Source of the DNA: Minisyncoccia bacterium
Lineage (GTDB): Bacteria; Pseudomonadota; Gammaproteobacteria; Burkholderiales; Burkholderiaceae_D
DNA: 64,000 nucleotides
Direction of reading: 5' to 3'
Assembly: GCA_047621345.1 (NCBI GenBank)
Contig: JBLHLW010000016.1
Span: forward strand, 4,592-68,591
Shown here: piece after piece, positions 96-18,676 of the stretch
How the letters are laid out: each line of letters starts with the position of its first letter
Numbering within the stretch: the first letter of the stretch is position 1
Notes under the pieces: generated by a model
The model's input: the letters and a program-made list of their open reading frames with translations, nothing else
What the model was told of the DNA's origin: nothing
Database searches by the model: none
Made by a program: the position numbers and the translations under genes

Positions 96-1454
96 CTACC
101 GCATCATCGGTGCAGCATCGTCCAGATGCCTTCGTGCTATCGCTTTGAAGTCATCGGAAACCCTGTCGTCGGCAAGTACGGCCCTCCAGAACTGGCCGGC
201 CAGCATCGCGGCGCGCGGCAGTTGTTGCAGATTCAGTTTGTCCATTGCGTCGAGAGACAGTCGTCGATCAACGACTTCACCTTGCATGTTTGGCCGATAG
301 AGCATCGGTAGCATGTCGTAGCAGGGCAGCAAGGAAAACTGCGGCCCGGGACGCCAGCTCAACGAGAGATTTCCCTGATGCCTGTCGGTATTGCCGATGA
401 GTGCGCCGTACAGGTCCAGCAACTGGATAACGCCGAGATCGGATGGCGTTAATTGGCGCTGGTTACAGAGCAAGCCTGCCACGGTGGACCACGATTTATC
501 GAGCGCGCCGGTTTCTCCTGCCAGGCTGGCCAATGACAGCATCGGGAGTCGGCCTTGAAGTCCCTGCCGGTCAAATCGGGTCGATTCCAGAAACACCCGA
601 TTTTGCGATATCAGGAGTTCCGACTTCGCGGCCGCAATACCGTTGAGTTCGAGCGTTGTCAGCGCATGGTGTTCGGCAATCAGGAGGTCCCCCCATCGCC
701 GCCCGCCTGGCGTGTCGATTCCCGCTGAAAATTTGACGATGACATGGCGGGCAGGTTGGTCCGCTGCATCGCCTGAGATCGTGGCGAGAAATTTAGGTTG
801 CTCACCGCCGGCGGAAGATCCGGGCAAATCCCCCCGCAAGGCCCGTCCGGCAAGCTCCGGGTAGCGAATACATCGATCGGTTTTGGGAATGATGTCCTGC
901 GCATTCTTCGCGAGATCCTGACGGTGACGACGATAGGACTCATTGCCGACGAGTAGATCGCCCACGCCATTGTTGCCGCGACGCGCAAGATAATAGAGCA
1001 CATCATCATCGCTCCACATCAACACATCCATCGGTAGATCCAGATCGGCATGTTCTTTCGGCACCGTCCGGCCTAAAAAACCTTGTGGCCGCAGATCCTG
1101 AAGAAAATAGGGCAACCCTTCGCACAGGGTGATGGCAGCACTTTCGCTCAATTGAACCGCATACCAGTGTCCGGCGAGGACGATCAAGTTGCAGAAATGG
1201 TCAGTGGCACCCATTGCATCGATGCGATAGACAGGCAATGTACTTCCAAGGTCACGCACAGGGCGACTCAAGCCGTATTTGGTCGACCGTGCAGCGCCCA
1301 GTACGCAGATGTCATTGCCCGCCGCCGGCCAGAGTCGTGAGAACGTCGGCTGGCTGATGCCCAATTCGGACGACAGCGTTTTTGCATCTGCCGGCTGGCG
1401 TGTCAAGAGGCGGCGAAGCGTCGCTATTTTGTCGTCAATTTTAATTTTTTTCAT
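96..1454 (-). CDS. yjjJ: HipA-family Ser/Thr kinase toxin, YjjJ-like, with N-terminal HTH
   Basis: 452 aa. N-terminal HTH (LSSELGISQPTFSRLW), SSAGGEQPKF loop, catalytic NTDRHQGN and YDMLPM motifs. No hipB-like ORF immediately upstream. Confidence 0.88.
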   Translation of the reverse strand: MKKIKIDDKIATLRRLLTRQPADAKTLSSELGISQPTFSRLWPAAGNDICVLGAARSTKYGLSRPVRDLGSTLPVYRIDAMGATDHFCNLIVLAGHWYAVQLSESAAITLCEGLPYFLQDLRPQGFLGRTVPKEHADLDLPMDVLMWSDDDVLYYLARRGNNGVGDLLVGNESYRRHRQDLAKNAQDIIPKTDRCIRYPELAGRALRGDLPGSSAGGEQPKFLATISGDAADQPARHVIVKFSAGIDTPGGRRWGDLLIAEHHALTTLELNGIAAAKSELLISQNRVFLESTRFDRQGLQGRLPMLSLASLAGETGALDKSWSTVAGLLCNQRQLTPSDLGVIQLLDLYGALIGNTDRHQGNLSLSWRPGPQFSLLPCYDMLPMLYRPNMQGEVVDRRLSLDAMDKLNLQQLPRAAMLAGQFWRAVLADDRVSDDFKAIARRHLDDAAPMMR

Positions 1455-1709: not shown

Positions 1710-1735
1710 AAAAAACCCGGGAACAAGTCCCGGGT
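1710..1735 (-). terminator. Intrinsic terminator of the TonB-dependent receptor gene
   Basis: Stem ACCCGGGA/TCCCGGGT with a 5-nt loop, followed by a T-run on the minus strand, about 70 nt past the stop codon. Confidence 0.75.
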
Positions 1736-1802
1736 CAAGGTGCTACTGGTATCAGTTTCCTGCCGTTTCCGGCTGGGTTGCTGACTTATTTTTTATGCTG
1801 CA

Positions 1803-4655
1803 TTAGAACTTGTACTTGACGCCGACATTCAGGTAACGGCCGAGCGCACCGCTGTAGTCCAGCGGGTTGTACGACTGGGCACCGTAGGTCAGTGGATCGA
1901 GTGGCGGGATCCGGTCAAACAAGTTCTGGATCGTTCCGAAAATTTCCACGTTCTTGTTGGCCATCCAGCGGAAGCTCATGTCGACCGTTGTGAAGGACGA
2001 TAATTTGCAGCCATTAGGTGCATCGGTACCGTCAGCGAAAACGCTGGCGCAACCAGCGGGGTCATTTTTGAACAGCTTGTTGTCGAGCTTGCCGCGGTAG
2101 TTGACGATGGTCGAGACACGAATCGCGTCGCGTTCCCAGGTTGCTCCCAAGTTGACGCGGTCTGCTGGCGTACCGATACAGTTGGTGACGTCGCAGTTGC
2201 CATGTGTGCCAGCAAAATCATACTCTGAGCCATCTTTTTCCTTGCGCATGAATTTGAACAGATGGGTCCATTTTGCATCCATGGTCAGTTTGCCATTGCC
2301 GGTACCCAGATCGAAGCCCTGACGGAAGTCGAGGTCGGCACCTTGCACGGTAGTCGAGGCAGAGTTGACATATTTCGCCAGCACTGCAGTGATACCACCC
2401 GGATCGCCTGGAATCGCTGTTGCTGTGGAAGGGTCGCGTGACACCTGGCCCGCTGCAATTGACGCAGAAGTCTGTTCCTGATTAATCTCGTTCTTCCGCT
2501 TGATCTGGAAGAAGTCGAGCGACATGCTGGTCTTCGGCAGTGGATCCCAAACGAAGCCGAGGGTCGTACTCTCGGATTTTTCTGGTTGCAGGTTTCTGTT
2601 CGGTGAGGTGATCACCGCCACGCTGGCAGGCGAACAAGCTGAAGTGACACCGAGAGCGCAACGAGTTGGATCAATTGCGCTGGAGAATGCAGCCAGGCCG
2701 CCGTCGCCGTTTTCTGCTGCACTAGGTGCCCGGAATCCACGAGCTACAGTTCCACGGATCGCAAATTCTTTGACCGGTGTCCATTTAGCGCCAATTTTTG
2801 GGGTGAAAGCATTGCCAACATCGGAGTAGCGGTCAGCACGTACGGCAGCTGACAACTCAAGGGATTTGGCAACAGGTGCTAAAACTTCCGCATACAAAGC
2901 ACCGACGTTGCGGCTGCCTTTGTAGGCAGAGTAGCCTAGCCCGATAACATCACCGACTTCTGTGCCGCTGGATGGGTCGAGTTGGACCGACTCGTGACGG
3001 AATTCACCGCCAACGGCCAAGCCGATCGCACCACCGGCAAGCTTGCCGAGTTCGCGCGACGCCTTGAAGTCGATTTGGGTGACCTGCGTCTTCGCATCGT
3101 TGCTGACTACGGGTGACAAAGCAGCATAGACAGCTGCAGAATTGAGGCCCGCATTTTCGGCGATACGCCAGTAGGTTCCGGCAGGCAATGCTGCATAGGC
3201 CGGGCTTCTGGCTCTAGCGGCAGCGACGTTGGCGGCGGTCGGATTGAGCAATGCGAAGGTTGCTGCCCGTGCCAGGTAGCCGGTGCGGGAATTTGAAACC
3301 TTGTTTTCCGAGTAAAGGAAGGCCGTGTCAAAGTCCCACGCGCCTTGAGTGCCCTTCAGACCGGCAACCAACCGTGTGAAGGTCGAGTCAATACTGCTGA
3401 CGCGGGGGCCGACATCGGCGGCGATATAACGCAAGCGTGCTGCTGTGCCGAAGTACGGGTTATCAGGATGAGCAGCACCAAGTGCGACACCGGCGTTGCT
3501 AACCGGGCCGCCCGGGTAACCGACACTGCCACTGACACCTGATGGTGTGGAGTAAGAAACCGACTCGCTCTTGTAGAGGTTGTACTCGACATAGGCTTGC
3601 AGGTCCGGATTGATCTGGCGTGTGCCGCGACCAAAGAAGTTAAACGTCTCCTGTTTAGGCTGAATTTGGTTGTAGTCTTGCGCCGAATCGGTCAGGCATC
3701 CACCGAGCGGATCGCCTTGCGGATGTGTCGTAAAGTTGCCGCACGCTGCCCCAGGGAAAAGACGGCTGAAGCCGGCGCCAGCGAGGTTGCCGCGGTTGTA
3801 GTAGTCCAGCGTTGTTGGGTTGCGGACATTTCCGTTGACAGCGCTGCTGGCGAGATTGTTGTCAATAATTGCACCGGCACCACTCAAGTTTTCTTGTGCG
3901 CTGAAGCCATACCCACGCAAATCAGATTTTCCAACCTGGCGACGGTCGCTGCGATCACGGTAGTACGCATCGCCCTTGTTGCCATATTCGAAGTTCAGCA
4001 AGACATTGTATTTATCCGTATCGATGTCGCCAAAGCCGTGGGTAATCGTAGCGCGGACATCCTTGCCGTCGCCGTAGCTAGCGGTCTGACCGTAGCTTAT
4101 CTTGGCCGTTGTACCTTTATAATCTTTGCGAAGGATGACGTTGACTACGCCGGCAATGGCGTCAGAGCCATAAATGGCTGATGCGCCGTCTTTCAGGATT
4201 TCAACGCGCTCGACAGCTTCCAGTGGAATCAGGTTGAGGTCTGCAAAGACTTTTTGACCATCGTCGGCCAAACCGTAGGGCGCAACGCGGCGGCCATTGA
4301 CCAGTACCAATGTCGAAGCGGTGCCGAGGCCGCGCAGCGAGATACCCGATGCACCGGCAGCAAAACCGTTACCAAAGGTGGTTGGTACTGAACCCTGGTT
4401 GTCAACGGCGAGCGATTGCAGCAATTCAGCAACACTGGCCTTGCCGGATTTCTCGATGTCGGTACGGCTCAGTATCTGAACGGCGGAGGCAGTTTCTGCC
4501 TGTGCCCGACGGATGTTTGACCCTGTCACTTCGACGCGTTGTGTGGCTGCAGCTTCTTGAGCCAAGGCAGGCATGGCGATCATGCCCAGTCCCATGACGA
4601 CACTGCCTGAAAACATCAGGCGCATCGACCGTGACAATACGGTTTCCTTCATCAT
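1803..4655 (-). CDS. TonB-dependent outer-membrane receptor
   Basis: Signal peptide, TonB-box-like QRVEVTGS, plug motifs (ISLRGLG, TLVLVNGRR, VERVEILKDGASAIYGSDAIAGVVN), C-terminal YKF. AAGGAG lies 7 nt before the ATG at 4655. Confidence 0.95.
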   Translation of the reverse strand: MMKETVLSRSMRLMFSGSVVMGLGMIAMPALAQEAAATQRVEVTGSNIRRAQAETASAVQILSRTDIEKSGKASVAELLQSLAVDNQGSVPTTFGNGFAAGASGISLRGLGTASTLVLVNGRRVAPYGLADDGQKVFADLNLIPLEAVERVEILKDGASAIYGSDAIAGVVNVILRKDYKGTTAKISYGQTASYGDGKDVRATITHGFGDIDTDKYNVLLNFEYGNKGDAYYRDRSDRRQVGKSDLRGYGFSAQENLSGAGAIIDNNLASSAVNGNVRNPTTLDYYNRGNLAGAGFSRLFPGAACGNFTTHPQGDPLGGCLTDSAQDYNQIQPKQETFNFFGRGTRQINPDLQAYVEYNLYKSESVSYSTPSGVSGSVGYPGGPVSNAGVALGAAHPDNPYFGTAARLRYIAADVGPRVSSIDSTFTRLVAGLKGTQGAWDFDTAFLYSENKVSNSRTGYLARAATFALLNPTAANVAAARARSPAYAALPAGTYWRIAENAGLNSAAVYAALSPVVSNDAKTQVTQIDFKASRELGKLAGGAIGLAVGGEFRHESVQLDPSSGTEVGDVIGLGYSAYKGSRNVGALYAEVLAPVAKSLELSAAVRADRYSDVGNAFTPKIGAKWTPVKEFAIRGTVARGFRAPSAAENGDGGLAAFSSAIDPTRCALGVTSACSPASVAVITSPNRNLQPEKSESTTLGFVWDPLPKTSMSLDFFQIKRKNEINQEQTSASIAAGQVSRDPSTATAIPGDPGGITAVLAKYVNSASTTVQGADLDFRQGFDLGTGNGKLTMDAKWTHLFKFMRKEKDGSEYDFAGTHGNCDVTNCIGTPADRVNLGATWERDAIRVSTIVNYRGKLDNKLFKNDPAGCASVFADGTDAPNGCKLSSFTTVDMSFRWMANKNVEIFGTIQNLFDRIPPLDPLTYGAQSYNPLDYSGALGRYLNVGVKYKF

Positions 4656-4744
4656 TGCCAAACTCCTTCGGGGGTAGTGTTTTTTAACAACCGATTTTTA
4701 TTCGCTGGTTATTTCCAGCTCTACAAACAATTTCCTTGGGAAAT

Positions 4745-4796
4745 TGATTTTGTGAATCACATGGAACCATTTGCTGCAGATCAATGTCAATCTGCA
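4745..4796. promoter_or_regulatory. Candidate operator palindromes in the receptor/ABC divergent region
   Basis: TGTGAATCACA (4751-4761), overlapping TGATT-N5-AATCA (4745-4759), and TGCAGAT-N8-ATCTGCA (4775-4796). Confidence 0.35.
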
Positions 4797-5199
4797 AAAT
4801 AGAACGGGTGTTCGAAAAAACAACAGGTTTTTTGTTGAGGAATTGAGGTGTCGGGACCGCCCGATGCAGAGCCAAACAGTGCAGATATATTGTCGATGTT
4901 GAATTACGCTAAATTTTATAAATCGATTTTTGACTTGAGGCGGCACTTGAATTTAGGCTTTTAATTCGCGGAAGGCGACAGGGGTAGGTGAACGTGAAAT
5001 CTTGTGCGCAGCAGCATAAAAATATAATTCTCACACTCCCGAATCGTGTTGACTTGCGTTATCTTTACGGCCTTTTACGTCTCGGCCACATGCTGAGGCG
5101 CAACGGTCCAACGATCAATCGGGCCATCCGGTTCAGGCGTGCGATCAGGCATAGTCAGAGCAGGCCCGCATGGCCGCAGCGTATAGAGGATGTCGATCG

Positions 5200-6987
5200 A
5201 TGTGGAAATTTGTAGCGCACGCGTGCGTCTCCCTGTTGCTGGTTGCCGGCCCTGCCCGTGCCGTTAGTCCGGCCGACCCTGACAAGGTCATCCATTACGC
5301 TATGCCGGCGGCTGATGATGGTTTCGATCTGGTACGTACCGCGAACTATTATTCCGGCGTGATTGCTGAATCCATTTACGAGACGCTACTCACTTACGAT
5401 TACCTGGCCAGTCCGGCCAAGCTCGTGCCGAAAGTGGCCGAGGCGATGCCCGAGATCACCGACGGCGGCAAGACCTATACCTTTCATCTCAAGAAAGGGA
5501 TCTTCTTTACTGACGATCCCGCCTTCAAGGGCAAGCCACGAGAACTGATTGCGCAAGACTTTGCCTATGCGTTTCGTCGCCTGCTTGATCCGGTTAATCG
5601 CTCGCCTTCAGCGGGTTTTCTGCAAGGAAAAATCGTCGGCATGGATGCCGTTGTCGCTGCTGCAAAGAAGAGCGGCAAGTTCGATTACGACGCGCCAGTT
5701 GCCGGTTTGCAGACGCCCGACCGCTACACCTTGCAAGTGCGTCTGAATGCCCCCGACTACAATTTCCTGTACGTGATTGCCTACAGTGCGCTCGCCGGTA
5801 GCGCGCGCGAAGTCATTGATGCCTACGGCTTGCAAAGCGGCCAGCATCCGGTCGGTACCGGTGCTTACATGCTGGAGAGTTACGTTCCGCGCAGCAAGAT
5901 CGTCCTCGTCGCCAACCCGGGCTATCGCGGTTCGATCTGGAATTTCGAACCTTCATCGGACCCGATGGACCAGCAAATCGTGCGTGACATGAAGGGCAAG
6001 AAAATGCCGCAGGTCGGGCGCATCGAGATCAGCGTGATCGAAGAAGAGCAGGCGCGCTGGCTGGCATTTCAGGACAAGCAGATCGACATCGACTGGATAC
6101 CGCAACTGGCATCGCGCACCGCGCTCGATGGGGCCAAGCTCAAGCCCGAATTCGTCGCGCAAAAAATCCGCCTGCAACGCTTTATCGAACCAGCCATCAC
6201 CTACACGTTCTTCAACATGCATGACCCCATCGTCGGTGGGTATACAAACGAAAAAAATGCGCTGCGTCGGGCGATCGCGATGTCCTTCAATACTGCCGAA
6301 GATGTGGCGCTTATTCGTCATGGTCAAGCGATGAATGCCGAGATGATCATCCCGCCGGGTGTCGTCGGTTACGACCCGAGCTATCGCAGCAGCATTGGTT
6401 ACGACCCGGTACTGGCCAACAAACTGCTCGACCACTTTGGCTACAAGCGTGGTCCCGACGGTTATCGCACGCTGCCCGATGGCAAGCCACTACGTCTGAA
6501 AATCAACCGCGAATCGTCGGTGATTTCGAAGGAATTGTCCGAGATGTGGAAGCGCGGGCTCGACGAGATTGGCGTTCATGCCGAGTACCCGGTCAGCAAC
6601 TTTGCCGACAACCTCAAAGCCGCCAACAAGTGCGAACTGATGATGTGGGGCGGTGCCTGGAGCGTTGATTACCCGGATGGTGAAAATTTCCTGCAACTGT
6701 TGTATGGACCGAATGCCCATCAGGGCAATAACGGTTGCTACGAGTCGGCCGCTTATGATGCGCTATTCACGAAAGCGATCGCGTTGCCGCCGGGGGGCGA
6801 ACGCACTGCGCTGTATGCCCAGATGAACCGGCAGATGGAAGCCGATACGGCCTGGCATCTTGGCGTACTGCGCATCCGCAACTGGGTTAGTCGGCCGTGG
6901 GTGCTGGGTTTCAAGAAGCATCCGTTGCTGCATACCGGCTGGGAATATATTGACGTCGACAAGCGGCTGGTGGAGGAGGGGCGTTGA
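5200..6987 (+). CDS. ABC transporter substrate-binding protein, family 5 (Opp/Dpp-like), copy 1
   Basis: Signal peptide from MWKFV; ETLLTYDY, PVGTG, ALRRAIAM, DYPDGENF motifs. Start moved from 5170 to the ATG at 5200, after GAGGA. Confidence 0.9.
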   Translation: MWKFVAHACVSLLLVAGPARAVSPADPDKVIHYAMPAADDGFDLVRTANYYSGVIAESIYETLLTYDYLASPAKLVPKVAEAMPEITDGGKTYTFHLKKGIFFTDDPAFKGKPRELIAQDFAYAFRRLLDPVNRSPSAGFLQGKIVGMDAVVAAAKKSGKFDYDAPVAGLQTPDRYTLQVRLNAPDYNFLYVIAYSALAGSAREVIDAYGLQSGQHPVGTGAYMLESYVPRSKIVLVANPGYRGSIWNFEPSSDPMDQQIVRDMKGKKMPQVGRIEISVIEEEQARWLAFQDKQIDIDWIPQLASRTALDGAKLKPEFVAQKIRLQRFIEPAITYTFFNMHDPIVGGYTNEKNALRRAIAMSFNTAEDVALIRHGQAMNAEMIIPPGVVGYDPSYRSSIGYDPVLANKLLDHFGYKRGPDGYRTLPDGKPLRLKINRESSVISKELSEMWKRGLDEIGVHAEYPVSNFADNLKAANKCELMMWGGAWSVDYPDGENFLQLLYGPNAHQGNNGCYESAAYDALFTKAIALPPGGERTALYAQMNRQMEADTAWHLGVLRIRNWVSRPWVLGFKKHPLLHTGWEYIDVDKRLVEEGR

Positions 6988-7041
6988 AGGTGGTGGTTTT
7001 TGTCGGTGGGGGGCGCATGGGGGCGCGGTCGGTGGGACGCG

Positions 7042-7074
7042 CGCGTGGGCACGATAAGTCCGTGCCCACCCTAC
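7042..7074 (-). repeat. REP family 1 (GTAGGGTGGGCAC-loop-GTGCCCACGCG)
   Basis: GTAG-headed palindromic unit between the two binding-protein genes; matches the other copies in the window. Confidence 0.85.
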
Positions 7075-7191
7075 GGGCAGCGCACGCGCGCGCCATCGAA
7101 TGCCCACCCGCGCGACCTGGCGACGTTCGCCACACTGGCCCGGCGCACTGCACCGACAACAATGACATCGCTCTGACATGCTAGGAAACAC

Positions 7192-8982
7192 ATGACATCA
7201 CTCTGGTTACGCACCCTAATTCTGGCCGGCGCCACGGCGCTGCTGCCGTTGGCATCTCACGCGGCCGGTTCAGCCGATCCCGCCAAGGTCTTGCGCTATG
7301 TCTTCCCGGCCGCCGAATCCGGTTTTGATCCGGCCATCGCGCGGGATCTGTATTCGGCACAAGTGCTGCAATCGGTGTTCGAGACGCTCTATACCTACGA
7401 CTATCTGGCCCGTCCCGCCAAGCTGGTGCCGCTGACCGCCGATGGCATGCCGGAGGTGACCGAGGAAGGCAAGGTCTACACAATCCGTCTGAAGAAAGGC
7501 ATCACCTTTTATCCCGACGCCGCCTTCAAGGGTAAGACGCGCGAACTGACGATGGCCGACTATATGTATTCGTTCCGTCGCCTGTTCGACCCGAAACTGG
7601 CATCGCCACACACCTGGCTGTTCGAGGGCAAGGTCATCGGCCTCGACGACCTCGCCAAGGAAGCCAAAAAGACCGGCAAGTTTGACTACGACACCCCGAT
7701 CGCCGGTTTCGAACTGCTCGATCCGTACACGTTGCGCATCCGCCTGACCCAGCCCGATTTTAATCTCGGCATGATTCTGGCGCACATCCCCACTGGCGCC
7801 GTGGCACGCGAAGTGATCGAGAAATACCACGATACCGGCGGCCAAGTGATGGCCAATCCGGTCGGCACCGGGCCGTATCATCTAACTGAATGGGTACGCT
7901 CGTCTCGCATTGAACTGACTGCCAGCCCGGCGTATCGCGGCTTTACGTGGGATTTCAAAGCCGGCAGCGATCCCGAAGACCAAGCCATTGTTGCCAGCCT
8001 CAAGGGCAAGCGGATGCCGCAAATCGGCCGTGTCGAAATCGCCGTGATGGTCGAAGACCAGTCGCGTCTGCTGGCCTTCCAGAACGATGAAATCGACCTG
8101 TTCGAATTGCAGGGGCCACTTGCGCCGCAACTGCTGGTGCGCGGCAAGCTCAAACCCGAGTTCGCCAAAAAAGGCTACCAGCTCTCGCGCATCGTCGATC
8201 CCGAATCGAGCTACTACTACTGGAATATGGAAGACCCGGTACTGGGCGGGTTTGACAAGCACAAGATTGCGCTGCGCCGCGCCATCGCGATGGCCCACAA
8301 CGTCGATGAAGAAATTCGCCTGATCTGGAATGGCGAAGCCACCGCGCTGGAATATCCGATCCCGCCCGGTGTCGTCGGCCATGACCCGTCGTACAAGAGT
8401 TCCATCCAGTACGACCCGGTCGCTGCCAATGCCCTGCTCGACAAATTCGGCTACAAGAAAGGCGGCGACGGTTACCGCAATCTGCCTAGCGGCAAACCGT
8501 TCACGATCCGTTATTCGGCGCGCAACGACAGCACCGGCCAGCAGCAAGCCGAGATGTGGAAAAAGACCTACGACTCGATCGCCATTCGCATGACCGGCGA
8601 TGTGCGTCCGTTTCCGGATTTGCTGAAAGCCGAAAAATCCTGCCAGCTGCAAACCCGCACCTCGCCGTGGATTGCCGACTATCCCGATGGTGACAATTTC
8701 ATGCAGTTGTACTACGGCCCGAATACCGGCCAGAACAACAATGGCTGCGTCAAGATCCCGGCCTACGATGAGCTGTATCGCGCCTCGCAAAAGCTGGCGG
8801 ATGGTCCCGAGCGCGATCTGATTTATCACAAGATGACCCGCATCATGGAGCTGTACTCGGCCCAGCGGATGGGCTATGCGCGCTTTCGCAACATGGTGTC
8901 GCAAGCACGCGTGATCGGCTACAAGAAACATCCGATCCTGAGCGCCGAGTGGATGTACTTTGATATCGAGAAAAACAAATGA
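7192..8982 (+). CDS. ABC transporter substrate-binding protein, family 5, copy 2
   Basis: Signal peptide; shares long blocks with copy 1 (AFKGKxREL, GKFDYD, IPPGVVGxDPSY, NNGC, KKHP). Confidence 0.92.
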   Translation: MTSLWLRTLILAGATALLPLASHAAGSADPAKVLRYVFPAAESGFDPAIARDLYSAQVLQSVFETLYTYDYLARPAKLVPLTADGMPEVTEEGKVYTIRLKKGITFYPDAAFKGKTRELTMADYMYSFRRLFDPKLASPHTWLFEGKVIGLDDLAKEAKKTGKFDYDTPIAGFELLDPYTLRIRLTQPDFNLGMILAHIPTGAVAREVIEKYHDTGGQVMANPVGTGPYHLTEWVRSSRIELTASPAYRGFTWDFKAGSDPEDQAIVASLKGKRMPQIGRVEIAVMVEDQSRLLAFQNDEIDLFELQGPLAPQLLVRGKLKPEFAKKGYQLSRIVDPESSYYYWNMEDPVLGGFDKHKIALRRAIAMAHNVDEEIRLIWNGEATALEYPIPPGVVGHDPSYKSSIQYDPVAANALLDKFGYKKGGDGYRNLPSGKPFTIRYSARNDSTGQQQAEMWKKTYDSIAIRMTGDVRPFPDLLKAEKSCQLQTRTSPWIADYPDGDNFMQLYYGPNTGQNNNGCVKIPAYDELYRASQKLADGPERDLIYHKMTRIMELYSAQRMGYARFRNMVSQARVIGYKKHPILSAEWMYFDIEKNK

Positions 8983-10985
8983 TGCTACGTACTTTGAGCC
9001 TGACCACCCTGATGCTGGTTGTTCCGCTGGCCGTTGCTGCGCCAGAGCGTGCGCTGGTTCCGTTGATCGATGCAGCGCAAGTTGCACCGCTGTGCCAGTC
9101 CAGCCTGACCGACTTGCGTCAGCGTGTCGCCGCCATGGTGGCGTTGCCGCCGGAGCGCGCGCGGGATGTCGCGGTCGTTCTCGACGAATGGAATCGGCTG
9201 CAGATGGCGATGCAGGATGTCGACGGTCCGCTCTCGATTCTAAGTAATGTCTCGCCGGACAAGGCCACGCGCAGCGCGATGGAAGCCTGCCTCGTTGAGC
9301 TCGGTCAGTTCGAGACCGATCTCAACCAGAATCCGGTCGTCTATGCGCAATTCAAAGGCATCACGCCGCGCGACGCCATCGAAACCAAGCTGCGTCAGGA
9401 CGTGCTCGATGGCTTCGAGGATACCGGTGCCGCGCTCGCGCCGGCGCAACAGGCGCGCCTGAAAGCGATCCTGAAACAACTCGAAGAACTCGGTCAAGCC
9501 TTCGCCCGCAACGTGCGCGACAACAGTACGCAACTGGTCTTTAGTGCACAGGAAGTCACCGGCTTGCCGGCCGATTATCTGGCGCGTGCCAAGCGCGATG
9601 ACAAGGGCAATTATTTGCTCGGTTACGCCACGCCGGAATACCTGCCGTTCATGGAGTACGCCGACGACGCCAACGCCCGCAAGCGTTATCAGGCGGCCTA
9701 CACCAATCGTGGCACCGCAGCCAATCCGCCCATGCTGAAAGAGGCAATGGCCTTGCGCCAGGAACTGGCAAGCTTGTTCGGTTTGCCGACCTATGCAGAT
9801 TTCGCGATCCGTCGCCGCATGGCAAAAACACCCGGGGCGGTCTTCACCTTCCTCGATGAAGTTCAGGCCGCCGTTACCGAGCTGGAGAAAAAAGAAATCG
9901 CCGAACTGCGCGCCTTCAAGGCCGAGACCCTGAAGACCACGCTGGCCGACACCCGCATCGACCGCTGGGACGCCGGCTACTGGCAGCAGAAATTGAAGAA
10001 GGCGCGCTACAACGTCGACCAGAATGCGCTGCGCGCGTACTTCCCGACCCCGGCTGCGCTGGCCTGGATCATGGATATTTCCTCCCGCCTGTACGGTATC
10101 AGTTTCACCCGCGTCGAGGTGCCAGTCTGGCATGCCGACGTGCAGTACTACGATGTCTTCGACACCAAATCAGCGCAACGCATCGGCGGTATCTACCTCG
10201 ATCCGTTTCCGCGTGAAGGCAAATATGGCCACGCCGCCGCCTTCGGTGTTCGCGGTGTCAGTACGCTGGCCCAGCGCACGCCGGTCTCGGTACTGCTGAC
10301 CAATTTCAATCGCACCGGCCTGTCGAGCGATGAGCTCGAAACCATGGTTCATGAATTCGGCCACGTGCTGCATGGTGTGCTGTCGCAGACCCGTTACGTG
10401 TCGCAGGCCGGTACTCGTGTCGAGCGCGATTTTGTCGAAGCGCCGTCGCAAATGTATGAAGAATGGGCCCGTCGCAAAGAGTCGCTGGGTTCGCTGGCCA
10501 ACTTCTGCAGCACGCCGTGTCCGGTCGTCGATGACGCGTTGCTGACGCGCCTGACCGCCGCGCACAACTTCGGTCGTGGCCTGCGTTACGGTCGTCAGTT
10601 GCTGTACGCGCGTTATGACATGAACGTCTACTCAGTGACCCCCGCCATGAAGGCCGGCGATCCTCTGGCGATCTGGAACACGATGGAAGCGGCGACCCCG
10701 CTCGGTCACGTCGCCGGCACCGAATTCCCCGGCCAGTTCGGCCACATCATGGGCGGTTATTCAGCCGGCTATTACGGTTACATGTGGTCCGAAGTACTGG
10801 CGCTCGACATGCTGTCGGCTTACCAGGACAAGCTGATGGACCCGGCCGTTGGCCAGCGCTACCGGCAAACTATTCTGGCCCGCGGCGGTGAAGCGCTCGG
10901 CGCCGACATGGTGCGTGAATTCCTCGGACGCGCGCCGGACAGTAAGGCATTTTTCGACGAAATTTCCGGCCAGCGGCTGCACTGA
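8979..10985 (+). CDS. M3 family (thimet/oligopeptidase A-like) zinc metallopeptidase with signal peptide
   Basis: HEFGHVLH zinc motif, DFVEAPSQMYEEW, GYSAGYYGYMWSEV. Hydrophobic N-terminus ending AVA-A. ATGA overlap with the upstream gene. Confidence 0.93.
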   Translation: MMLRTLSLTTLMLVVPLAVAAPERALVPLIDAAQVAPLCQSSLTDLRQRVAAMVALPPERARDVAVVLDEWNRLQMAMQDVDGPLSILSNVSPDKATRSAMEACLVELGQFETDLNQNPVVYAQFKGITPRDAIETKLRQDVLDGFEDTGAALAPAQQARLKAILKQLEELGQAFARNVRDNSTQLVFSAQEVTGLPADYLARAKRDDKGNYLLGYATPEYLPFMEYADDANARKRYQAAYTNRGTAANPPMLKEAMALRQELASLFGLPTYADFAIRRRMAKTPGAVFTFLDEVQAAVTELEKKEIAELRAFKAETLKTTLADTRIDRWDAGYWQQKLKKARYNVDQNALRAYFPTPAALAWIMDISSRLYGISFTRVEVPVWHADVQYYDVFDTKSAQRIGGIYLDPFPREGKYGHAAAFGVRGVSTLAQRTPVSVLLTNFNRTGLSSDELETMVHEFGHVLHGVLSQTRYVSQAGTRVERDFVEAPSQMYEEWARRKESLGSLANFCSTPCPVVDDALLTRLTAAHNFGRGLRYGRQLLYARYDMNVYSVTPAMKAGDPLAIWNTMEAATPLGHVAGTEFPGQFGHIMGGYSAGYYGYMWSEVLALDMLSAYQDKLMDPAVGQRYRQTILARGGEALGADMVREFLGRAPDSKAFFDEISGQRLH

Positions 10986-11002
10986 AAGGGCACGAGCACA
11001 CT

Positions 11003-11941
11003 ATGACTTCCTACATATTGCGGCGCCTGTGGCAAATGCTACCGACCATGCTGGGCGTGATCCTGCTGGTCTTCATGCTGTTCAACTGGGTGGGTGGCGA
11101 TCCGGCCTACATCCTGGCCGGCAAGATGTCGAACGCCGAACAGATTGCCAACATCCGCACCCAGCTTGGCATCGACCAGCCGTTCTACGTGCAGCTATGG
11201 ATTTTCATCAAGCAGATCGTCACCTTCGATTTCGGCAGTAGCTGGAGCACCGGCGAAAAAGTCTCCAGCGTGATCCTGTCGCGCCTTGGGCCATCGCTCA
11301 CCGTACTCATTCCATTGACCATCCTCGAAACCGTGATCGCCATCGGCCTGGCGCTGGGTATTGCCTTTGTGCGCGGGTCACTCACTGACCGCGCCGTGAT
11401 GGTGGCTTGTACCGTCGGTATGTCCATCAGCATTTTGGTCTACATCATCGTGTTCCAGTACTTCTTTGCCTACAAGCTCGGCATGTTCCCGGTGCAGGGT
11501 TGGGGCGATAACTTCCTCGAAAACCTGTTCAAGTATGCGCTGCTGCCTATCCTCATTGGTCTGGCCGTCAGCGTGGCGCCGACGTTGCGCTTGTTCCGTA
11601 CCTTCGTGCTCGATGAAGTCAATCAGGATTACGTGCGCACCGCGCGTGCCAAGGGCGTTTCCGAGCGCCGCATCCTGTGGGTGCATGTATTGCGCAACGC
11701 GGCTATTCCGATCATCACGCACGTGATGTCGAACTTGCCTGCACTGCTGATCGGCGCCTTCCTGATCGAACGCTTTTTCTCGATCCCGGGGATTGGTCGC
11801 GAAGTCATTCTGGCTGTTGAGCGCAGCGACTTCCCGGTCATCAAGGCGATCACTGTCTACGTCGCCGCCGCCACGATGATCTTCAATTTGCTCACGGACT
11901 TGCTGTATCAGGCCGTTGATCCACGCGTACAACTGAAGTAG
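11003..11941 (+). CDS. Peptide ABC transporter permease (OppB/DppB-like)
   Basis: YILRRL start, DYVRTARAKG EAA loop, HVLRNA, RDFPVI-type C-terminus. Confidence 0.93.
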   Translation: MTSYILRRLWQMLPTMLGVILLVFMLFNWVGGDPAYILAGKMSNAEQIANIRTQLGIDQPFYVQLWIFIKQIVTFDFGSSWSTGEKVSSVILSRLGPSLTVLIPLTILETVIAIGLALGIAFVRGSLTDRAVMVACTVGMSISILVYIIVFQYFFAYKLGMFPVQGWGDNFLENLFKYALLPILIGLAVSVAPTLRLFRTFVLDEVNQDYVRTARAKGVSERRILWVHVLRNAAIPIITHVMSNLPALLIGAFLIERFFSIPGIGREVILAVERSDFPVIKAITVYVAAATMIFNLLTDLLYQAVDPRVQLK

Positions 11942-11952
11942 GAACCGGATTC

Positions 11953-13083
11953 ATGACACAGATCGAATCACAAATTGCACCCGGCATGTCGCCAGGACTG
12001 TGGGTGCTGGCATGGCGCCGGTTGCGCGCCGACACCGTCGCCATGGTGGCGCTGGCCATCGTGGTCGCCTATCTGGTGACGCTGGCGCTGTCGGCCACCG
12101 GATTGGTGGCGTCCAACTGGGCCGACGAAGTCGGCGTCAATTACGCACCACCGACGTTCATGGGGCCGCAATCAGCTGCCGAACGCGGCGCCTCGCCGAT
12201 CGAGCCGGGTCTGCCGGCACTGCCGCCGGAGAACCCGCTCGATCCGTTGAAAGACATCATCCGCGAGCTGCGTGCCCAAACGGCGTCGCCGCAACCGGTG
12301 ATCGTTAATGACTACGGTATCCCCGATCCGATTGGTCCGGAGCTGGCCGAAGTACGGGCCGAACTGGCCAAGGGCGGTGCCGCCAAAGAAGTCGTGGCGC
12401 GCAAGCAAACGCTGCCATTCGGTGCCGACAAGTGGGGCCACGACATCATTCAAAAAACCATCAAGGGCGCTGAAACCTCGATCGTCGTCGGTCTGGTCGC
12501 CGCCGTGCTGGCGACCTTTCTCGGGACGATTTTTGGCGCCTTCTCGGGCTACTTCGGCGGCAAGGTCGATGACTTGTTCAACTGGTTCTACAGCATCTTC
12601 ACGTCGGTGCCGTACCTGTTGCTGATCCTTGCCGTGGCCGCCGTACTCCAGCAAAAAGGCGTCGTCACCATCGTGCTGATTCTTGGATTGACTGGCTGGA
12701 CTGGCACATATCGCCTGATCCGCGCCGAGTACCTCAAGCACAAGAACCGCGAATACGTCTGGGCAGCCGATGCGATTGGCGCGTCGCACATGCGCAAGAT
12801 GTTCACGCATATTTTCCCGAACGTCAGCCACGTCGCGCTGGTGCAGGTGTCGATCCTGGTGGTGGGTTTTATCAAGGCCGAAGTGATCCTGAGCTTTCTG
12901 GGTTTCGGCGTGCCGGTCGGTACCGTCTCGTGGGGCAGCATGCTCAATGAAGCACAGAACGAACTGATCCTCGGCAAGTGGTGGCAACTGGTGGCGGCGA
13001 GTGCCGCGATGGCGCTACTGGTGACAGCGTTCTCGCTGTTTACCGACGCGTTGCGCGATGCGCTTGATCCGAAGCTCAAATAG
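11953..13083 (+). CDS. Peptide ABC transporter permease (OppC/DppC-like) with a long periplasmic insert
   Basis: WRRLR N-terminus, LPFGADKWGHD motif, REYVWAADAIG EAA loop, DALRDALDPK end. Confidence 0.92.
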   Translation: MTQIESQIAPGMSPGLWVLAWRRLRADTVAMVALAIVVAYLVTLALSATGLVASNWADEVGVNYAPPTFMGPQSAAERGASPIEPGLPALPPENPLDPLKDIIRELRAQTASPQPVIVNDYGIPDPIGPELAEVRAELAKGGAAKEVVARKQTLPFGADKWGHDIIQKTIKGAETSIVVGLVAAVLATFLGTIFGAFSGYFGGKVDDLFNWFYSIFTSVPYLLLILAVAAVLQQKGVVTIVLILGLTGWTGTYRLIRAEYLKHKNREYVWAADAIGASHMRKMFTHIFPNVSHVALVQVSILVVGFIKAEVILSFLGFGVPVGTVSWGSMLNEAQNELILGKWWQLVAASAAMALLVTAFSLFTDALRDALDPKLK

Positions 13084-13085
13084 GA

Positions 13086-14780
13086 ATGACGATGACCTCC
13101 CCCCTGCTCTCCGTAAAGAACCTGCGCGTCAGTTTTTATACCGACAAGACCCACAGCGTCGAAGCCGTCAAGGGCATCTCGTTCGACATTCCGCGTAATG
13201 CCACCATCGCGCTGGTCGGCGAATCCGGTAGCGGCAAGTCGGTCAGTTCGCTGGCCGTGATGGGGTTGCTGTCGCCCGATAATTCCTTTGTCGATCCGGC
13301 TAGTGTCATCGAATTCGAGGGGCGCAACTTGCTGGCCCTGTCGATTGCCGAACGACGCAACCTGTGCGGCAAGGAAATCTCGATGATTTTCCAGGAGCCG
13401 ATGACCTCATTGAATCCGGTCTTCACGGTCGGTTTTCAGATTGCCGAAGTGCTCAAGCTGCACATGAACATGGATAGCCGGCAGGCGCGCGTGCGCACGC
13501 TGGCATTGCTCGAAGAAGTCGGCATTCCATCGCCGTTGACCAAGATCGACGACTATCCGAGCCAGCTCTCGGGCGGCCAGCAACAGCGCGTGATGATCGC
13601 GATGGCGATTGCCTGCGAACCGAAGCTACTCATTGCCGACGAGCCAACCACCGCACTCGATGTGACGATCCAGAAGCAGATCATCGACTTGCTCGACGCG
13701 CTGCGCAAGAAGCGTCAGATGTCGGTGCTGTTCATCACGCATGACCTCGCGCTGGTGGGCGAAATTGCCGATGCCGTCATCGTCATGCGCAATGGTGAAG
13801 TGCGCGAAAAAGGCGAGATCCATCAGATCTTCGAAGCGCCGAAAGACCCGTACACGAAAGCCTTGCTGCGCTGCCGGCCATCGCTCGACGAACGCCCGAT
13901 GCGCTTGCCGGTGATTGCCGATTACCTCGAAGGCGATGGCGAACCGGCCGGCTTGCTCGAGCAGCGCAGCCGTGGGCTGACCGGCAGCGAAGACATCGTG
14001 CTCGATGTGCGCAACCTCGGCAAAAGTTTTTACACCCGTGAGGGCCTGTTCGGGCGCAAGGAATTCAAGGCTGTCAGCGATGTCTCGTTCAAGCTGGCGC
14101 GTGGCAAGACGCTGGGCGTGGTCGGCGAATCTGGCTCCGGCAAGACCACGGTCGGGCTGACGCTGCTGCGCTTGCATCAGGCCACTTCAGGCCAGGCGCT
14201 GTTTGACGGCAAGGATATTCTGGCCATGTCGAACAAGGAATTCATGGCCTACAAGCGGCGCATCCAGATCATTTTCCAGAACCCGTATGCCTCGCTCAAT
14301 CCACGTTTCACGGTCGGCCAGATCTTGCTTGAACCGATGCAGATCCACGCCATCGGCCGCGACGACAAGGAGCGGGTCGGCATGGCCTACGCGCTGCTGA
14401 AAAAAGTCGGTTTGCCGGAAGCGGCCTTCCATCGCTATCCGCATGAATTTTCGGGGGGGCAGCGCCAGCGTATTGCGATCGCGCGCTGCCTGACCTTGAA
14501 GCCCGAAGTGCTGGTCTGCGATGAGTCGGTATCGGCGCTCGATGTCTCGGTGCAGGCCCAGGTGCTCAACTTGCTGCAGGATTTGCAGGAAGAATTCAAC
14601 ATGAGCTACATCTTCATTTCGCATGACCTCGCGGTGGTCAAGTACATCGCCGATCAGGTGATGGTGATGAATCAGGGCAGCGTGGTCGAACTGGCCAATT
14701 CCGACGAGCTGTACCGCAATCCGCAGCATGCTTATACGCGCACCTTGTTGAGTGCGATACCGAAGGGGTTGAAACATTGA
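13086..14780 (+). CDS. Fused dual-domain peptide ABC ATPase
   Basis: Two Walker A motifs ([16 protein letters not shown]), two signatures ([16 protein letters not shown]), HPYT-like oligopeptide-type tails. Confidence 0.95.
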
Positions 14781-14957
14781 AGTTTTAAGCGGTGAAGCGC
14801 CCGGCGTCCTGTTGTCACGCCGTGCCGGTTTCAGGTCGCTGCGGCACACATTTGCAACAGGTCGCGTATCATCACGGCGCTATCGGACGTCAATGCTGAA
14901 ATGACGCTTGCCGACGCCGGAACCTTCCCTTTTTACTAATTAGAGCCTTTAACTGTC

Positions 14958-15731
14958 ATGAGCAATATGAACGAAGAGCGCGTGCTGAGCGTGCATCACT
15001 GGACCGACCGGTTGTTTTCCTTTACCACCACGCGCAGCCCGTCGCTGCGTTTTTCCAACGGCCACTTCACGATGATTGGCCTGCGCATCAACGACAAACC
15101 GTTGTTGCGCGCGTACAGCATTGCCAGTGCCAATTACGAAGACCATCTCGAATTCCTGAGCATCAAGGTCGATGGCGGCCCGCTGACTTCGCACCTGAAA
15201 AACATCCAGGTGGGCGATCCGGTGATCGTCGGTCATAAGCCGACCGGTACGCTGGTCGTCGACTATCTGTTGCCCGGCAAGCGGCTTTACATGCTCTCGA
15301 CTGGCACCGGGCTGGCACCGTTCATGAGCATCGTGCGCGACCCCGAAATTTACGAAAAATTTGACCAGGTCGTGCTGGTGCATGGCGTGCGTCAGGTCGA
15401 TGAGCTGGCTTATCACGACATGCTGCTCGAACACTTGCCGAATCATGAATTGATCGGCGAACTGGTATCGAGCAAATTGCGTTATTACCCAACCGTCACG
15501 CGTGAGTCTTTCCGTAACAACGGACGGGTGACCGATCTGATCGAGAGCGGCAAGCTGTTCGAGGACCTGGAAGTGCCACCTTTTGACCCGGCAGTTGATC
15601 GCGTCATGATCTGCGGCAGCGCCGACATGCTGCGTGACCTCAAGGTCATTTTGGAAGCCCGCGGGTTCAAGGAAGGTAACACCTCGATACCGGGCGATTT
15701 TGTTATTGAACGGGCGTTTGCGGAAAAATAA
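14958..15731 (+). CDS. fpr: Ferredoxin--NADP+ reductase
   Basis: RAYSIAS FAD motif, GGPLTS, TGTGLAPF, MICGS, ERAF C-terminus. Confidence 0.96.
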   Translation: MSNMNEERVLSVHHWTDRLFSFTTTRSPSLRFSNGHFTMIGLRINDKPLLRAYSIASANYEDHLEFLSIKVDGGPLTSHLKNIQVGDPVIVGHKPTGTLVVDYLLPGKRLYMLSTGTGLAPFMSIVRDPEIYEKFDQVVLVHGVRQVDELAYHDMLLEHLPNHELIGELVSSKLRYYPTVTRESFRNNGRVTDLIESGKLFEDLEVPPFDPAVDRVMICGSADMLRDLKVILEARGFKEGNTSIPGDFVIERAFAEK

Positions 15732-15893
15732 AGCGCGCGGTTGTGTCTGCAATCCGCAAGCAGAGTCAGAGTGATTTCCGCGCCGTAGCGTTGAGAAATA
15801 AAGCGATGATTCTGGTTGCGGCCGTTGTGGTGTGCGGCGATTAAAAAAACGTTCTGCTGCGTCATTTTTTCTGAACTTTCGAGGCCTCCATTC

Positions 15894-17327
15894 ATGTTCG
15901 ACACACTGCGTCACCTCTTCAAGACCCTCGCTCCCGCGGTCGACTTTTGCTCACTGCGAATAGTCGACGAATCTGGCGAGCAGATCACCGTCCGCCAGAA
16001 CATCCTGCAACCACTGACCACCAGCATCGACCGGGGTGCAATGGTCACCATCATCCATCGCGGTGGTTACGGCTACGCCGCCACCAGCGACTTGAGCAGT
16101 GCCGGTCTGAAAGACGCAATAGCCCGCGCGCAGGCATGGGCCGCCGCCAGCGCCGGGCGCTCGGTGGTCGATTATTCGGCGATCACGATGCCGCATCCGG
16201 TGGGTCATTACGCCAGCGTCCCCAGTGCCAGCACCAATCGCAAGGACCTGATCGCGCTGCTGATGCAAGAGTCGCAGGCCTGCCAGATCGATGCGCGCAT
16301 TGTCGACTGGTCGGCTTCGGTCGGCACCATCACCACGCATCAGTTGTACCTGACCAGCGGCGGTGGCGACCTCGAACAACAGTTCCGCTACGTGATTCCG
16401 AACTTATCCGTGACGGCCAATGAGGGTGCTGAAACGCAGACCCGCAGCCTGGGCGGCCAGTACAACGGTTACTGTCGGCAGGGTGGTCTCGAAGTACTGG
16501 CCGATGCCAGTTTTTATGGCAGCGGCGCACGTGTGGCAAGGGAGGCGATTGCCTTGCTGTCCGCGCCGAACTGTCCTAGCGGCTCGATGGATGTGCTGCT
16601 GATGCCGGAACAGATGATGTTGCAGATCCACGAGTCGATCGGTCATCCGATCGAACTTGACCGCATCCTTGGCGACGAGCGCAATTTTGCCGGCACCAGC
16701 TTCGTCACGCTCGACATGTTCGGCACCTTCCAGTACGGCTCGCCACTGCTCAACGTGAGCTACGATCCGACCCGCAGCGAACAGTTCGCCAGCTACGGCT
16801 GGGACGACGAAGGCCATCCGGCGGAGAAGACTTACGTGATCCGCAACGGCGTACTGGAACGTCCGCTGGGTGGCGCGATTTCGCAGGCCCGCGCCGGTAT
16901 CGACGGCGTCGCCAATGCGCGCGCTTGCAGCTGGAATCGGGCGCCGATCGACCGCATGGCCAACCTCAATATCGAACCCGGCAACAGCACGCTCAACGAC
17001 ATGATCGGCTCGGTCGAGCGCGGCGTGCTGATGGATACCAATGTCTCGTGGTCGATCGATGACTCGCGCAACAAGTTCCAGTTCGGTTGCGAAACTGGCC
17101 AGCTCATCGTTGATGGCGAGCTTAAGGGGATGGTCAGGAATCCGAATTATCGCGGCATCTCGGAGTCCTTCTGGCGCTCGCTGAAAGCCGTTGGCAATGC
17201 CGCTACCGTCGATGTGATGGGCACGCCGTTTTGCGGCAAGGGTGAGCCCTCGCAAGTGATCCGGGTCGGCCATGCGTCACCGGCCTGCTTGTTTGCCAAT
17301 GTCGATGTGTTTGGCGGAGAAGCCTGA
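15894..17327 (+). CDS. tldD: TldD-family metalloprotease
   Basis: HESIGH zinc motif, WDDEG, RMANLNIEPG, CGKGEPSQ. Start placed at the ATG at 15894. Confidence 0.9.
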   Translation: MFDTLRHLFKTLAPAVDFCSLRIVDESGEQITVRQNILQPLTTSIDRGAMVTIIHRGGYGYAATSDLSSAGLKDAIARAQAWAAASAGRSVVDYSAITMPHPVGHYASVPSASTNRKDLIALLMQESQACQIDARIVDWSASVGTITTHQLYLTSGGGDLEQQFRYVIPNLSVTANEGAETQTRSLGGQYNGYCRQGGLEVLADASFYGSGARVAREAIALLSAPNCPSGSMDVLLMPEQMMLQIHESIGHPIELDRILGDERNFAGTSFVTLDMFGTFQYGSPLLNVSYDPTRSEQFASYGWDDEGHPAEKTYVIRNGVLERPLGGAISQARAGIDGVANARACSWNRAPIDRMANLNIEPGNSTLNDMIGSVERGVLMDTNVSWSIDDSRNKFQFGCETGQLIVDGELKGMVRNPNYRGISESFWRSLKAVGNAATVDVMGTPFCGKGEPSQVIRVGHASPACLFANVDVFGGEA

Positions 17328-18649: not shown

Positions 18650-18676
18650 TGTTTTAGAGCGCACGCGTGGGCCACC

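Follow-up and report, generated by a model that had tools for sequence, protein, structure and literature searches.

What does a bacterium import when a TonB-dependent receptor gene stands back to back with an Opp-type transporter operon that carries its own peptidase? The question is raised by a locus in a stretch of 64,000 nucleotides (the window; G000:C16:4592-68591) from a member of the genus Actimicrobium (Oxalobacteraceae), in which a receptor gene is divergent from a six-gene operon, SBP1-SBP2-M3-PermB-PermC-ATPase, each gene being recognised by its Pfam domains. The first-pass annotation of this DNA considered that no receptor, M3 peptidase and Opp-type importer system had been characterised in betaproteobacteria. 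That statement has to be withdrawn: judged by gene content and orthology, the locus is a member of the family of clusters typified by the hemT cluster of Acinetobacter baumannii (PMC10483418, PMC8560813), a locus type that has already been described and named. As for its cargo, the sequence evidence leads us to give an even chance to the reading that TonB-energised uptake of oligopeptides is the primary route, with optional trimming in the periplasm and with haem as a possible side cargo.

The relationship to the hemT cluster emerged from a search with an alignment of the M3 orthologues, which yielded 80 loci. In seven of nine Acinetobacter loci, ExbD-ExbD-ExbB-TonB-receptor is divergent from SBP-SBP-M3-permease-permease-ATPase, and the gene list of the hemT cluster in Table 1 of PMC10483418 is composed of the same genes, namely the tonB1 system, HemTR, two binding proteins, an oligopeptidase and an ATP-binding cassette (ABC) importer. 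The same cluster is known as heme cluster 1 (PMC8560813) or A1S_1603-1613 (PMC3055841), and the A. geminorum copy (L052) falls in clusters of at least 90% identity with A. baumannii proteins. Between Acinetobacter and the window, identity amounts to ~80% for PermB, ~71% for the ATPase, 67% for ExbB, 66% for ExbD, 54-59% for the binding proteins, 53-56% for M3 and 28% for the receptor. Thus, the two loci share the gene set and order, the doubled ExbD, the divergent layout and orthologous components; both are also devoid of a Fur box, the A. baumannii cluster being without iron induction. They differ in that the window receptor comes from a sister clade (clade A) rather than from the HemTR clade, that two receptors of sister species, the HemTR-type TBDR-B and TBDR-C, are missing, that a HipA/YjjJ-like gene is interposed between receptor and tonB, and that the host is not a pathogen but a betaproteobacterium living free in fresh water or soil.

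All seven genes of the initial description were confirmed by Pfam. The receptor gene, TBDR-A, occupies an open frame at 1803-4661 on the reverse strand (952 aa from the frame start; Plug and barrel domains), and its likely open reading frame is 1803..4655, with the start codon ATG at 4655 and AAGGAG 7 nt upstream. The operon on the forward strand consists of SBP1 (5200..6987, open frame from 5170; SBP_bac_5, 220 bits), SBP2 (7192..8982; SBP_bac_5), the M3 peptidase (8979..10985; Peptidase_M3, 345 bits), the OppB-type permease PermB (11003..11941; BPD_transp_1 with BPD_transp_1_N), the OppC-type permease PermC (11953..13083; OppC_N and BPD_transp_1) and a fused double ABC ATPase (13086..14780; two ABC_tran domains and oligo_HPY). 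The likely start of SBP1 is the ATG at 5200, preceded by AGAGGA; hence, the divergent control region, previously given as 545 bp, spans 544 bp (4656..5199) between the likely true starts. The tight coupling ascribed to the operon holds for five of the six genes, with a 4-nt overlap of SBP2 and M3 and gaps of 17 nt (M3-PermB), 11 nt (PermB-PermC) and 2 nt (PermC-ATPase), but SBP1 is set off from SBP2 by 204 nt. A strong terminator-like hairpin with a T-run (TTTTCGTTGT; 1714..1736, reverse strand; 9-bp stem with 6 GC pairs) begins 67 nt past the receptor stop codon, which suggests that the receptor gene of this genome forms a transcription unit of its own.

The locus is larger than was initially thought, a dedicated TonB-ExbB-ExbD-ExbD set having been overlooked. 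It lies directly left of the window on the receptor's strand (G000:C16:1700-4243) and comprises TonB (C16:3572-4243), ExbB (C16:2586-3533) and two ExbD genes (C16:2154-2582 and 1700-2125), together with a gene for a TPR protein. A YjjJ/HipA-family kinase gene (window 96-1454, reverse strand; NCBIfam NF007297, 450 bits vs cut-off 401) separates the set from the receptor. Other ExbB copies of G000 match over 84-104 aa only, at no more than 50% identity. The linkage of this set to the operon persists even where the receptor gene is lacking: in G015 (L036, G015:C15:94943-114900; 2596-14855), TonB-ExbB-ExbD-ExbD is divergent from SBP-SBP-M3-ABC with no receptor in between, and no receptor resembling clades A, B or C was found in the whole G015 genome at E<=1e-50.

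Is the receptor a regular companion of the importer? A survey anchored on PermB, with one genome per genus of the family (61 genomes) and an orthologue threshold of at least 78% identity, identified PermB orthologues in 33 genomes, with 23 genera being informative for the upstream genes; the surveyed genomes are related and hence not independent samples. In 16 of the 23 genera, the genes immediately upstream of the importer encode one to three TonB receptors (g1, G011, G014, G016, G017, G022, G023, G042, G045, G046, G048, G053, G060, G070, G071 and G082), one (G015) has only TonB-ExbB-ExbD-ExbD at this position, and six (G043, G044, G061, G063, G081 and G084) have neither. In Acinetobacter, the receptor is present in seven of the nine loci, where it is followed by TonB-ExbB-ExbD-ExbD. 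Lack of conservation of the receptor beside the operon, which had been named as grounds for abandoning a functional tie between receptor and importer, is thus not what the survey reveals, and synteny backs the tie. G014, G017, G048, G060 and G045 each have clade-A receptors adjacent to the importer orthologue; three of them adjoin the permease genes in G014, and in G045, a different genus, a clade-A receptor 74% identical to TBDR-A is divergent from SBPx3-M3-permease-permease-ATPase, which is the layout of the window. In G022, G014 and G023, which have clade-A receptor orthologues, M3 is lacking, yet an importer orthologous to that of the window (PermB 80-85%, ATPase 72-76%) adjoins the receptor arrays. 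In the entire set, however, no fewer than five clades (A, B/HemTR, C, Oar-like and one other type) are represented among the adjacent receptors, so the receptor slot appears to be refilled rather than merely inherited, which argues that selection keeps a receptor beside the importer.

Peptide cargo is favoured because the M3 gene is coupled within the operon and its product is thimet-like, and because SBP1 is nearest to peptide binders and retains a characteristic aspartate. M3 is translationally coupled inside the operon. Its active site is intact, HEFGH at residues 458-462 and E487 in FVEAPSQ being invariant in the alignment, and the Pfam match of 345 bits extends over residues 224-661, with the full-length domain expected of M3A enzymes. 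PDB matches cover residues ~87-659 of 668 and rank thimet oligopeptidase (1.8e-95) above OpdA (6.5e-60); the protein is closest to thimet oligopeptidase and neurolysin and scores below the OpdA and Dcp equivalog cut-offs. The N-terminus (MMLRTLSLTTLMLVVPLAVA, then AP after the putative cleavage site) resembles a signal peptide, operon-linked orthologues have equivalent hydrophobic N-termini, and four cysteines are invariant across eight aligned orthologues, which is consistent with a periplasmic protein. M3 therefore differs from its M3A relatives thimet oligopeptidase/neurolysin, OpdA and Dcp, with which it shares the HEXXH + E active site, in the signal-peptide-like N-terminus, the four conserved cysteines and the position of its gene inside a transporter operon, and appears to be an exported, thimet-like oligopeptidase. 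The M3A enzymes are known to cleave only short peptides, roughly 5-17 residues in length.

Across many lineages, M3 is combined with ABC genes in two gene orders, at the junction of binding-protein and permease genes or after the ATPase, whereas in Acidobacteriota it stands alone. A tree of M3 places every locus linked to a receptor or to TonB inside one 20-row clade (Shimodaira-Hasegawa-like approximate likelihood ratio test, 99). Within the PermB-positive genomes, M3 is found in 13 of the 33 orthologous loci and is missing from 20, so it should be regarded as an accessory and not a core component. A natural M3-less variant occurs in the same genus: in G001 (L127, G001:C21:4000-23900; 5248-19900), TPR-ExbD-ExbD-ExbB-TonB-receptor is divergent from three binding-protein genes and the permeases, and no M3 gene was detected in that genome at the orthologue level. 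The proposal that incoming peptides are trimmed by M3 in the periplasm accordingly agrees with the apparent export and intact active site of the enzyme, but trimming is not obligatory. Nevertheless, an oligopeptidase is the only enzyme ever embedded in the operon, and neither a glycosidase nor any other catabolic gene recurs there.

SBP1 is a family-5 (cluster C) periplasmic binding protein with a signal peptide (MWKF...GPARA, cleaved before VS). It is 48% identical to SBP2, and the two types are conserved separately as far as Acinetobacter. The nearest solved relatives of both proteins are binders of the peptide, OppA and DppA types. The W-S-V-D motif of SBP1 (AWSVDYPDGENF) aligns with WCAD of OppA (GWCADYNEPTSF) and WTGD of DppA (GWTGDNGDPDNF), and SBP2 carries WIADYPDGDNF; the aspartate of this W-x-x-D motif is what we take to be the anchor of the peptide N-terminus, as in the OppA and DppA structures. 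Conservation within the locus is highest for PermB (78-96% identity across the family, ~80% to Acinetobacter), whereas PermC contains a proline-rich insertion of ~90 residues (~60-150) between its first membrane helix and the core, and NCBIfam matches to it start only at residue ~150. The ATPase is a fused double ABC protein of the GsiA/YejF type with an oligo_HPY C-terminal region, which completes the domain set of Opp/Dpp-type (PepT family) systems: SBP_bac_5, BPD_transp_1, two ABC_tran and oligo_HPY. The binding proteins and permeases nonetheless fall below the NCBIfam equivalog cut-offs of OppA-F, DppA-F, GsiA-D, NikA-E, YejABEF and SapA-F, the binding-protein scores being 84 vs 1005 for DppA and 84 vs 947 for OppA, and the ATPase scores 593 vs 1077 for GsiA and 563 vs 834 for YejF. 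The ATPase does exceed the cut-offs of a generic dipeptide-ATPase subfamily model (532 vs 408) and of the NikD/NikE and CntD/CntF models, which it passes because it contains two conserved ABC domains, and this is not an assignment to any one system. On these scores, the importer is a distinct subfamily of Opp/Dpp-type systems. The number of binding-protein genes per locus varies from none to five; in G014 (L134), G023 (L133), G060 (L155) and G048 (L157), arrays of two or three receptors are divergent from PermB-PermC-ATPase, with no such gene in the operon.

How TBDR-A came to adjoin the operon can be traced by comparison with sister genomes. The protein (~950 aa) has a signal peptide ending in ...MPALA before QE, followed by a TonB-box-like motif (QRVEVTGSNIRR). 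Clade A, to which it belongs, is the sister (100/99 support) of a clade that unites TBDR-B, TBDR-C, the receptors of Collimonas and G011, and the Acinetobacter HemTR. The complete genome G002 displays the full array of TBDR-B, TBDR-A and TBDR-C, followed by TonB-ExbB, and its second receptor is 95% identical to the TBDR-A of the window. An array of TBDR-B and then TBDR-A adjoins SBP1 in G002, G004, G005 and G006, whereas G000 and G008 are without TBDR-B. The blastn junctions place 226 bp in G000 (window 4774-4999) where G002 has 3.6 kb holding TBDR-B; from these junctions, it is evident that the HemTR-type receptor was deleted in G000 and that TBDR-A was thereby brought next to the operon. Similarly, the HipA-like gene occupies the place of TBDR-C, with ~1.7 kb in place of ~3.6 kb. 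The first receptor slot turns over fast: TBDR-B proteins of G002 and G006 (L031 15175-18000 vs L032 15173-17956) are 44% identical between flanking operon genes that are more than 90% identical, and the identity threshold for hemTR among A. baumannii isolates had to be relaxed (PMC10483418). Despite the adjacency made by deletion, TBDR-A is a plausible genuine partner, given that the slot is kept filled by different clades. Furthermore, chance adjacency is unlikely because there are only 11 Plug-domain genes in the 4.19 Mb of G000 and the arrangement recurs in relatives. Every Actimicrobium genome with an M3-containing operon on a sufficiently long contig has TBDR-A alongside. We infer that in G000 the importer is fed by TBDR-A and not by the canonical partner of the HemTR clade.

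The control region conveys no sign of metal or cofactor regulation. No match to a riboswitch or leader RNA was obtained with Rfam in the divergent region at E<=1, and in ten orthologous control regions the best match to the 19-bp Fur consensus reached no more than 12 of 19 positions, no better than in shuffled sequences; the same scan recovered a 15-of-19 site upstream of another receptor gene of G000, which served as the positive control. The first-pass annotation, which had recognised neither a Fur box nor a B12 riboswitch, was right in this respect, and no element for the iron or B12 control of the receptor that it had held to be fatal to its proposal was found in the region. About 113 bp proximal to the receptor and ~200 bp proximal to SBP1 are common to G000 and G002, as defined by the blastn junctions. 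Upstream of SBP1, two blocks on the forward strand are nearly invariant in an alignment of six Actimicrobium genomes, including the M3-less G001: an AT-rich block (GCTAAATTTTATAAATCGAT; 4908..4927), which is a candidate regulator site, and a block with a perfect TATAAT at 5023-5028 (TTGTGCGCAGCAGCATAAAAATATAATT; 5002..5029), which is a candidate operon promoter. Neither was recognised as a known regulator site. If the latter is the promoter, the operon has a 5′ leader of ~165 nt; the promoter scan left the TATAAT unflagged because its -35 element is weak. An 18-nt direct repeat (4682-4699 and 4914-4931; 83% identity), considered as a motif shared by receptor and operon, was treated as a chance match since its core is absent upstream of the other receptors and of tonB in sister genomes.

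Under the oligopeptide reading, the receptor would pull oligopeptides too large for porins across the outer membrane, energised by the dedicated TonB-ExbB-ExbD-ExbD set, which in this genome would serve TBDR-A alone. Where M3 is present, the peptides would be cut in the periplasm to sizes accepted by the binding proteins, and the ABC importer would take the trimmed products in via the two family-5 binding proteins. Haem might be a low-affinity side cargo, in parallel with the homologous hemT cluster of A. baumannii. In this scheme, the export of M3, the nature of the cargo, the order of the steps and the role of TBDR-A as feeder are all deduced. Several points weigh against it. M3 is missing from most of the orthologous loci, even within the genus, and the permease genes of G014, G023, G048 and G060 are not accompanied by a gene for a binding protein, so a single peptide-trimming scheme does not fit the whole family. 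The adjacency of TBDR-A to the operon arose by deletion, and the receptor gene ends in its own terminator. Family-5 binding proteins are also known to bind nickel, opines, glutathione and oligosaccharides. Finally, growth of A. baumannii on 1 uM haemoglobin is poor in a hemTR hphR double mutant, though not in either of the single mutants (PMC8560813), which means that HemTR can pass haem.

This last observation is the main support for haem uptake, the function annotated for hemT, in which the receptor would import haem, the family-5 proteins would bind it, as DppA and MppA do in E. coli, the importer would deliver it to the cytoplasm, and the peptidase would be incidental or would remove the peptide from haem-peptides. 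The idea dates from the description of the cluster in 2011, when haem uptake was predicted solely on the basis of sequence (Antunes 2011, cited in PMC8560813), and the role is stated to be not experimentally confirmed (PMC10483418). Bateman et al. found the hemTR single mutant to be without defect, the double mutant being defective on abundant haemoglobin, and suggested that haem is perhaps not the primary substrate and that the machinery may have been co-opted, like E. coli Dpp (PMC8560813). The best-scoring NCBIfam families for the receptors are haem/haemoglobin receptor subfamilies, and the relatives of the binding proteins in the PDB include structures named 'Heme-binding protein A'. On the curated models TIGR01785 and TIGR01786, however, TBDR-A obtains 123 and 112 bits vs cut-offs of 317 and 324, about a third of what is required, and HemTR, TBDR-B, TBDR-C and the Collimonas receptor obtain 64-115 bits; membership in the TonB-dependent haem/haemoglobin receptors was rejected on these cut-offs. 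A conserved histidine between the FRAP and NPNL boxes is a criterion for haem receptors; none is present in TBDR-A or in two Acinetobacter HemTRs, a result to which we attach little weight.

Regulation and gene content also speak against haem as the main cargo. The ten control regions are without a Fur box, the positive control having worked. Eijkelkamp et al. did not observe induction of A1S_1603-1613 under iron limitation (PMC3055841), and, according to PMC3859900, which cites Zimbler 2013, only tonB3 of the three A. baumannii tonB systems is iron-induced. None of the copies of the locus contains or adjoins a gene for haem degradation, and no HemS was found in G000. The only haem oxygenase gene of that genome (G000:C41:20928-26610; L130 4929-10611) is surrounded by sensor-kinase genes, one of them for a bacteriophytochrome (PHY + GAF + kinase); its product is probably a BphO that makes the chromophore and not an enzyme for iron release. 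In addition, arrays of up to three divergent receptors with rapid turnover would be odd for a single cofactor, and the locus occurs commonly in Betaproteobacteria that live free in soil and fresh water. Taken together, we regard haem as an unlikely primary cargo.

Uptake of a non-peptide nutrient, such as oligosaccharides, opines, glutathione-like thiols or metallophores, with M3 as a later add-on in some lineages, seems to us quite unlikely. It would readily accommodate the patchy occurrence of M3, the variable number of binding-protein genes and the failure of binding proteins and permeases to reach the Opp, Dpp, Gsi, Nik and Yej equivalog cut-offs; the receptors also carry an N-terminal motif of the VEVTGS type, which is seen in nutrient, non-siderophore receptors. 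Yet, the enzyme embedded in the operon is always an oligopeptidase, with no recurring glycosidase or other catabolic gene, the SBP1 aspartate aligns with the ligand-amine anchor of OppA and DppA, and the closest solved relatives of the binding proteins are peptide binders.

It is improbable, in our assessment, that receptor and operon are uncoupled in G000, with the operon importing peptides that enter through porins or originate in the periplasm and TBDR-A being a mere neighbour with an unrelated substrate. Such an arrangement would be in line with the 3.6-kb deletion behind the adjacency, with the receptor's own terminator and with the operons that have no receptor nearby, namely those of six genera, Sterolibacterium, Oxalobacter and two Acinetobacter species. 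One of the Acinetobacter loci (Acinetobacter sp. ANC 4173, L056) retains the operon and only an ExbD remnant of the outer-membrane module, and appears to have lost its receptor and TonB genes recently. It is at odds, however, with the clade-A receptors beside the orthologous importer in five other genomes, with the linkage of TonB-ExbBD to the operon in the receptor-less G015 and with the retention of TBDR-A beside the M3-containing operons of Actimicrobium. Least of all do we expect a Yej- or Sap-like system that takes up or detoxifies bacteriocins or peptide antibiotics, M3 being the enzyme that destroys them in the periplasm. The fused ATPase and the ~600-aa binding proteins do resemble Yej-type systems, and fast turnover, such as that of TBDR-B, is typical of receptors exploited by phages or bacteriocins. 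However, the neighbourhood has no recurring genes for immunity, toxins or biosynthesis, the YejB, YejE and YejF models score far below their cut-offs, and importing a toxin makes little sense as defence. As a weak point, because the protein has not been shown to be one of the binding proteins of the locus, microcin C-type carrier conjugates are likely not recognised by a distant YejA homologue of A. baumannii (PMC11725936).

Oligopeptide uptake, our preferred reading, has partial precedents among known systems. E. coli Dpp with DppA and MppA is likewise an Opp/Dpp-family importer with family-5 binding proteins, and is cited by Bateman et al. as the precedent for one importer carrying both peptides and haem (PMC8560813). 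Unlike the window locus, it has no linked receptor, TonB set or periplasmic peptidase and uses separate ATPases, and the binding proteins and permeases of the window miss the Dpp equivalog cut-offs. The comparison with RagAB of Porphyromonas gingivalis and FusA/FusC of Pectobacterium, drawn at the outset, is sound as a functional analogy, but the locus belongs to neither group. RagAB also takes up oligopeptides across the outer membrane in a TonB-dependent manner; RagAB/SusCD systems, however, have a SusC/RagA-type receptor and a gene for a RagB/SusD-like lipoprotein and occur in another phylum. Membership was rejected, as the receptor scores 51 bits on TIGR04056 vs a cut-off of 368 and no extra gene lies between or beside receptor and operon. 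The FusA/FusB/FusC system similarly combines a receptor with a TonB homologue of its own and with processing of the imported cargo by a metalloprotease in the periplasm, but its protease is of the M16 family, the protein it imports is a folded iron protein, and an Opp-type importer is lacking; membership was again rejected, the window peptidase being M3 and no FusA chain being among the PDB matches at E<=0.001. YejABEF membership was rejected on model cut-offs.

Downstream of the operon, a ferredoxin-reductase-like gene and a TldD/PmbA-like pair are located at window 14958-18649. Neither the former gene nor the pair keeps this place in Acinetobacter or G014, and TldD/TldE was for that reason rejected as a part of the pathway; the receptor arrays of G011, G014, G022 and G023 are flanked by a tldD with a higher score, which is adjacent to yhdP. 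In place of TldD/TldE, rluB and scpB, with the pseudouridine synthase gene first, are found downstream of the importer in both Acinetobacter dispersus (L049 15835-18215) and G014 (L134 8161-11101), with scpA in addition in Acinetobacter. This flank, common to two classes, may reflect an old position or a transfer that carried the flanking genes along.

For the family as a whole, we tentatively suggest, at somewhat less than even confidence, that the hemT-type loci form a proteobacterial peptide-utilisation system, in which a sequence-tolerant Opp-type hub would be combined with interchangeable receptor cassettes (clades A, B/HemTR, C and Oar-like) for different classes of long peptides, with its own TonB-ExbB-ExbD2 motor and with an optional thimet-like peptidase. 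Should the peptide reading fail, the locus would be an ordinary haem or nutrient uptake cluster that already has a name. The comparative picture, with free-living Oxalobacteraceae as hosts, no iron control, an embedded exported oligopeptidase and multi-clade receptor arrays beside one importer, makes a peptide alternative to the known but unsettled haem annotation directly testable. About 98% of A. baumannii isolates carry the homologue, which is counted among the iron-uptake systems of the species, and HemTR has been tried as a vaccine antigen, although the papers describing it call the haem role unproven; if the peptide reading is true, a widely cited iron-uptake cluster and vaccine antigen would be misnamed. 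The locus would also represent the first TonB-dependent oligopeptide route outside Bacteroidota, adding an outer-membrane step to the textbook picture of Opp/Dpp transport and giving a role to a large uncharacterised clade of receptors of ~900-950 aa.

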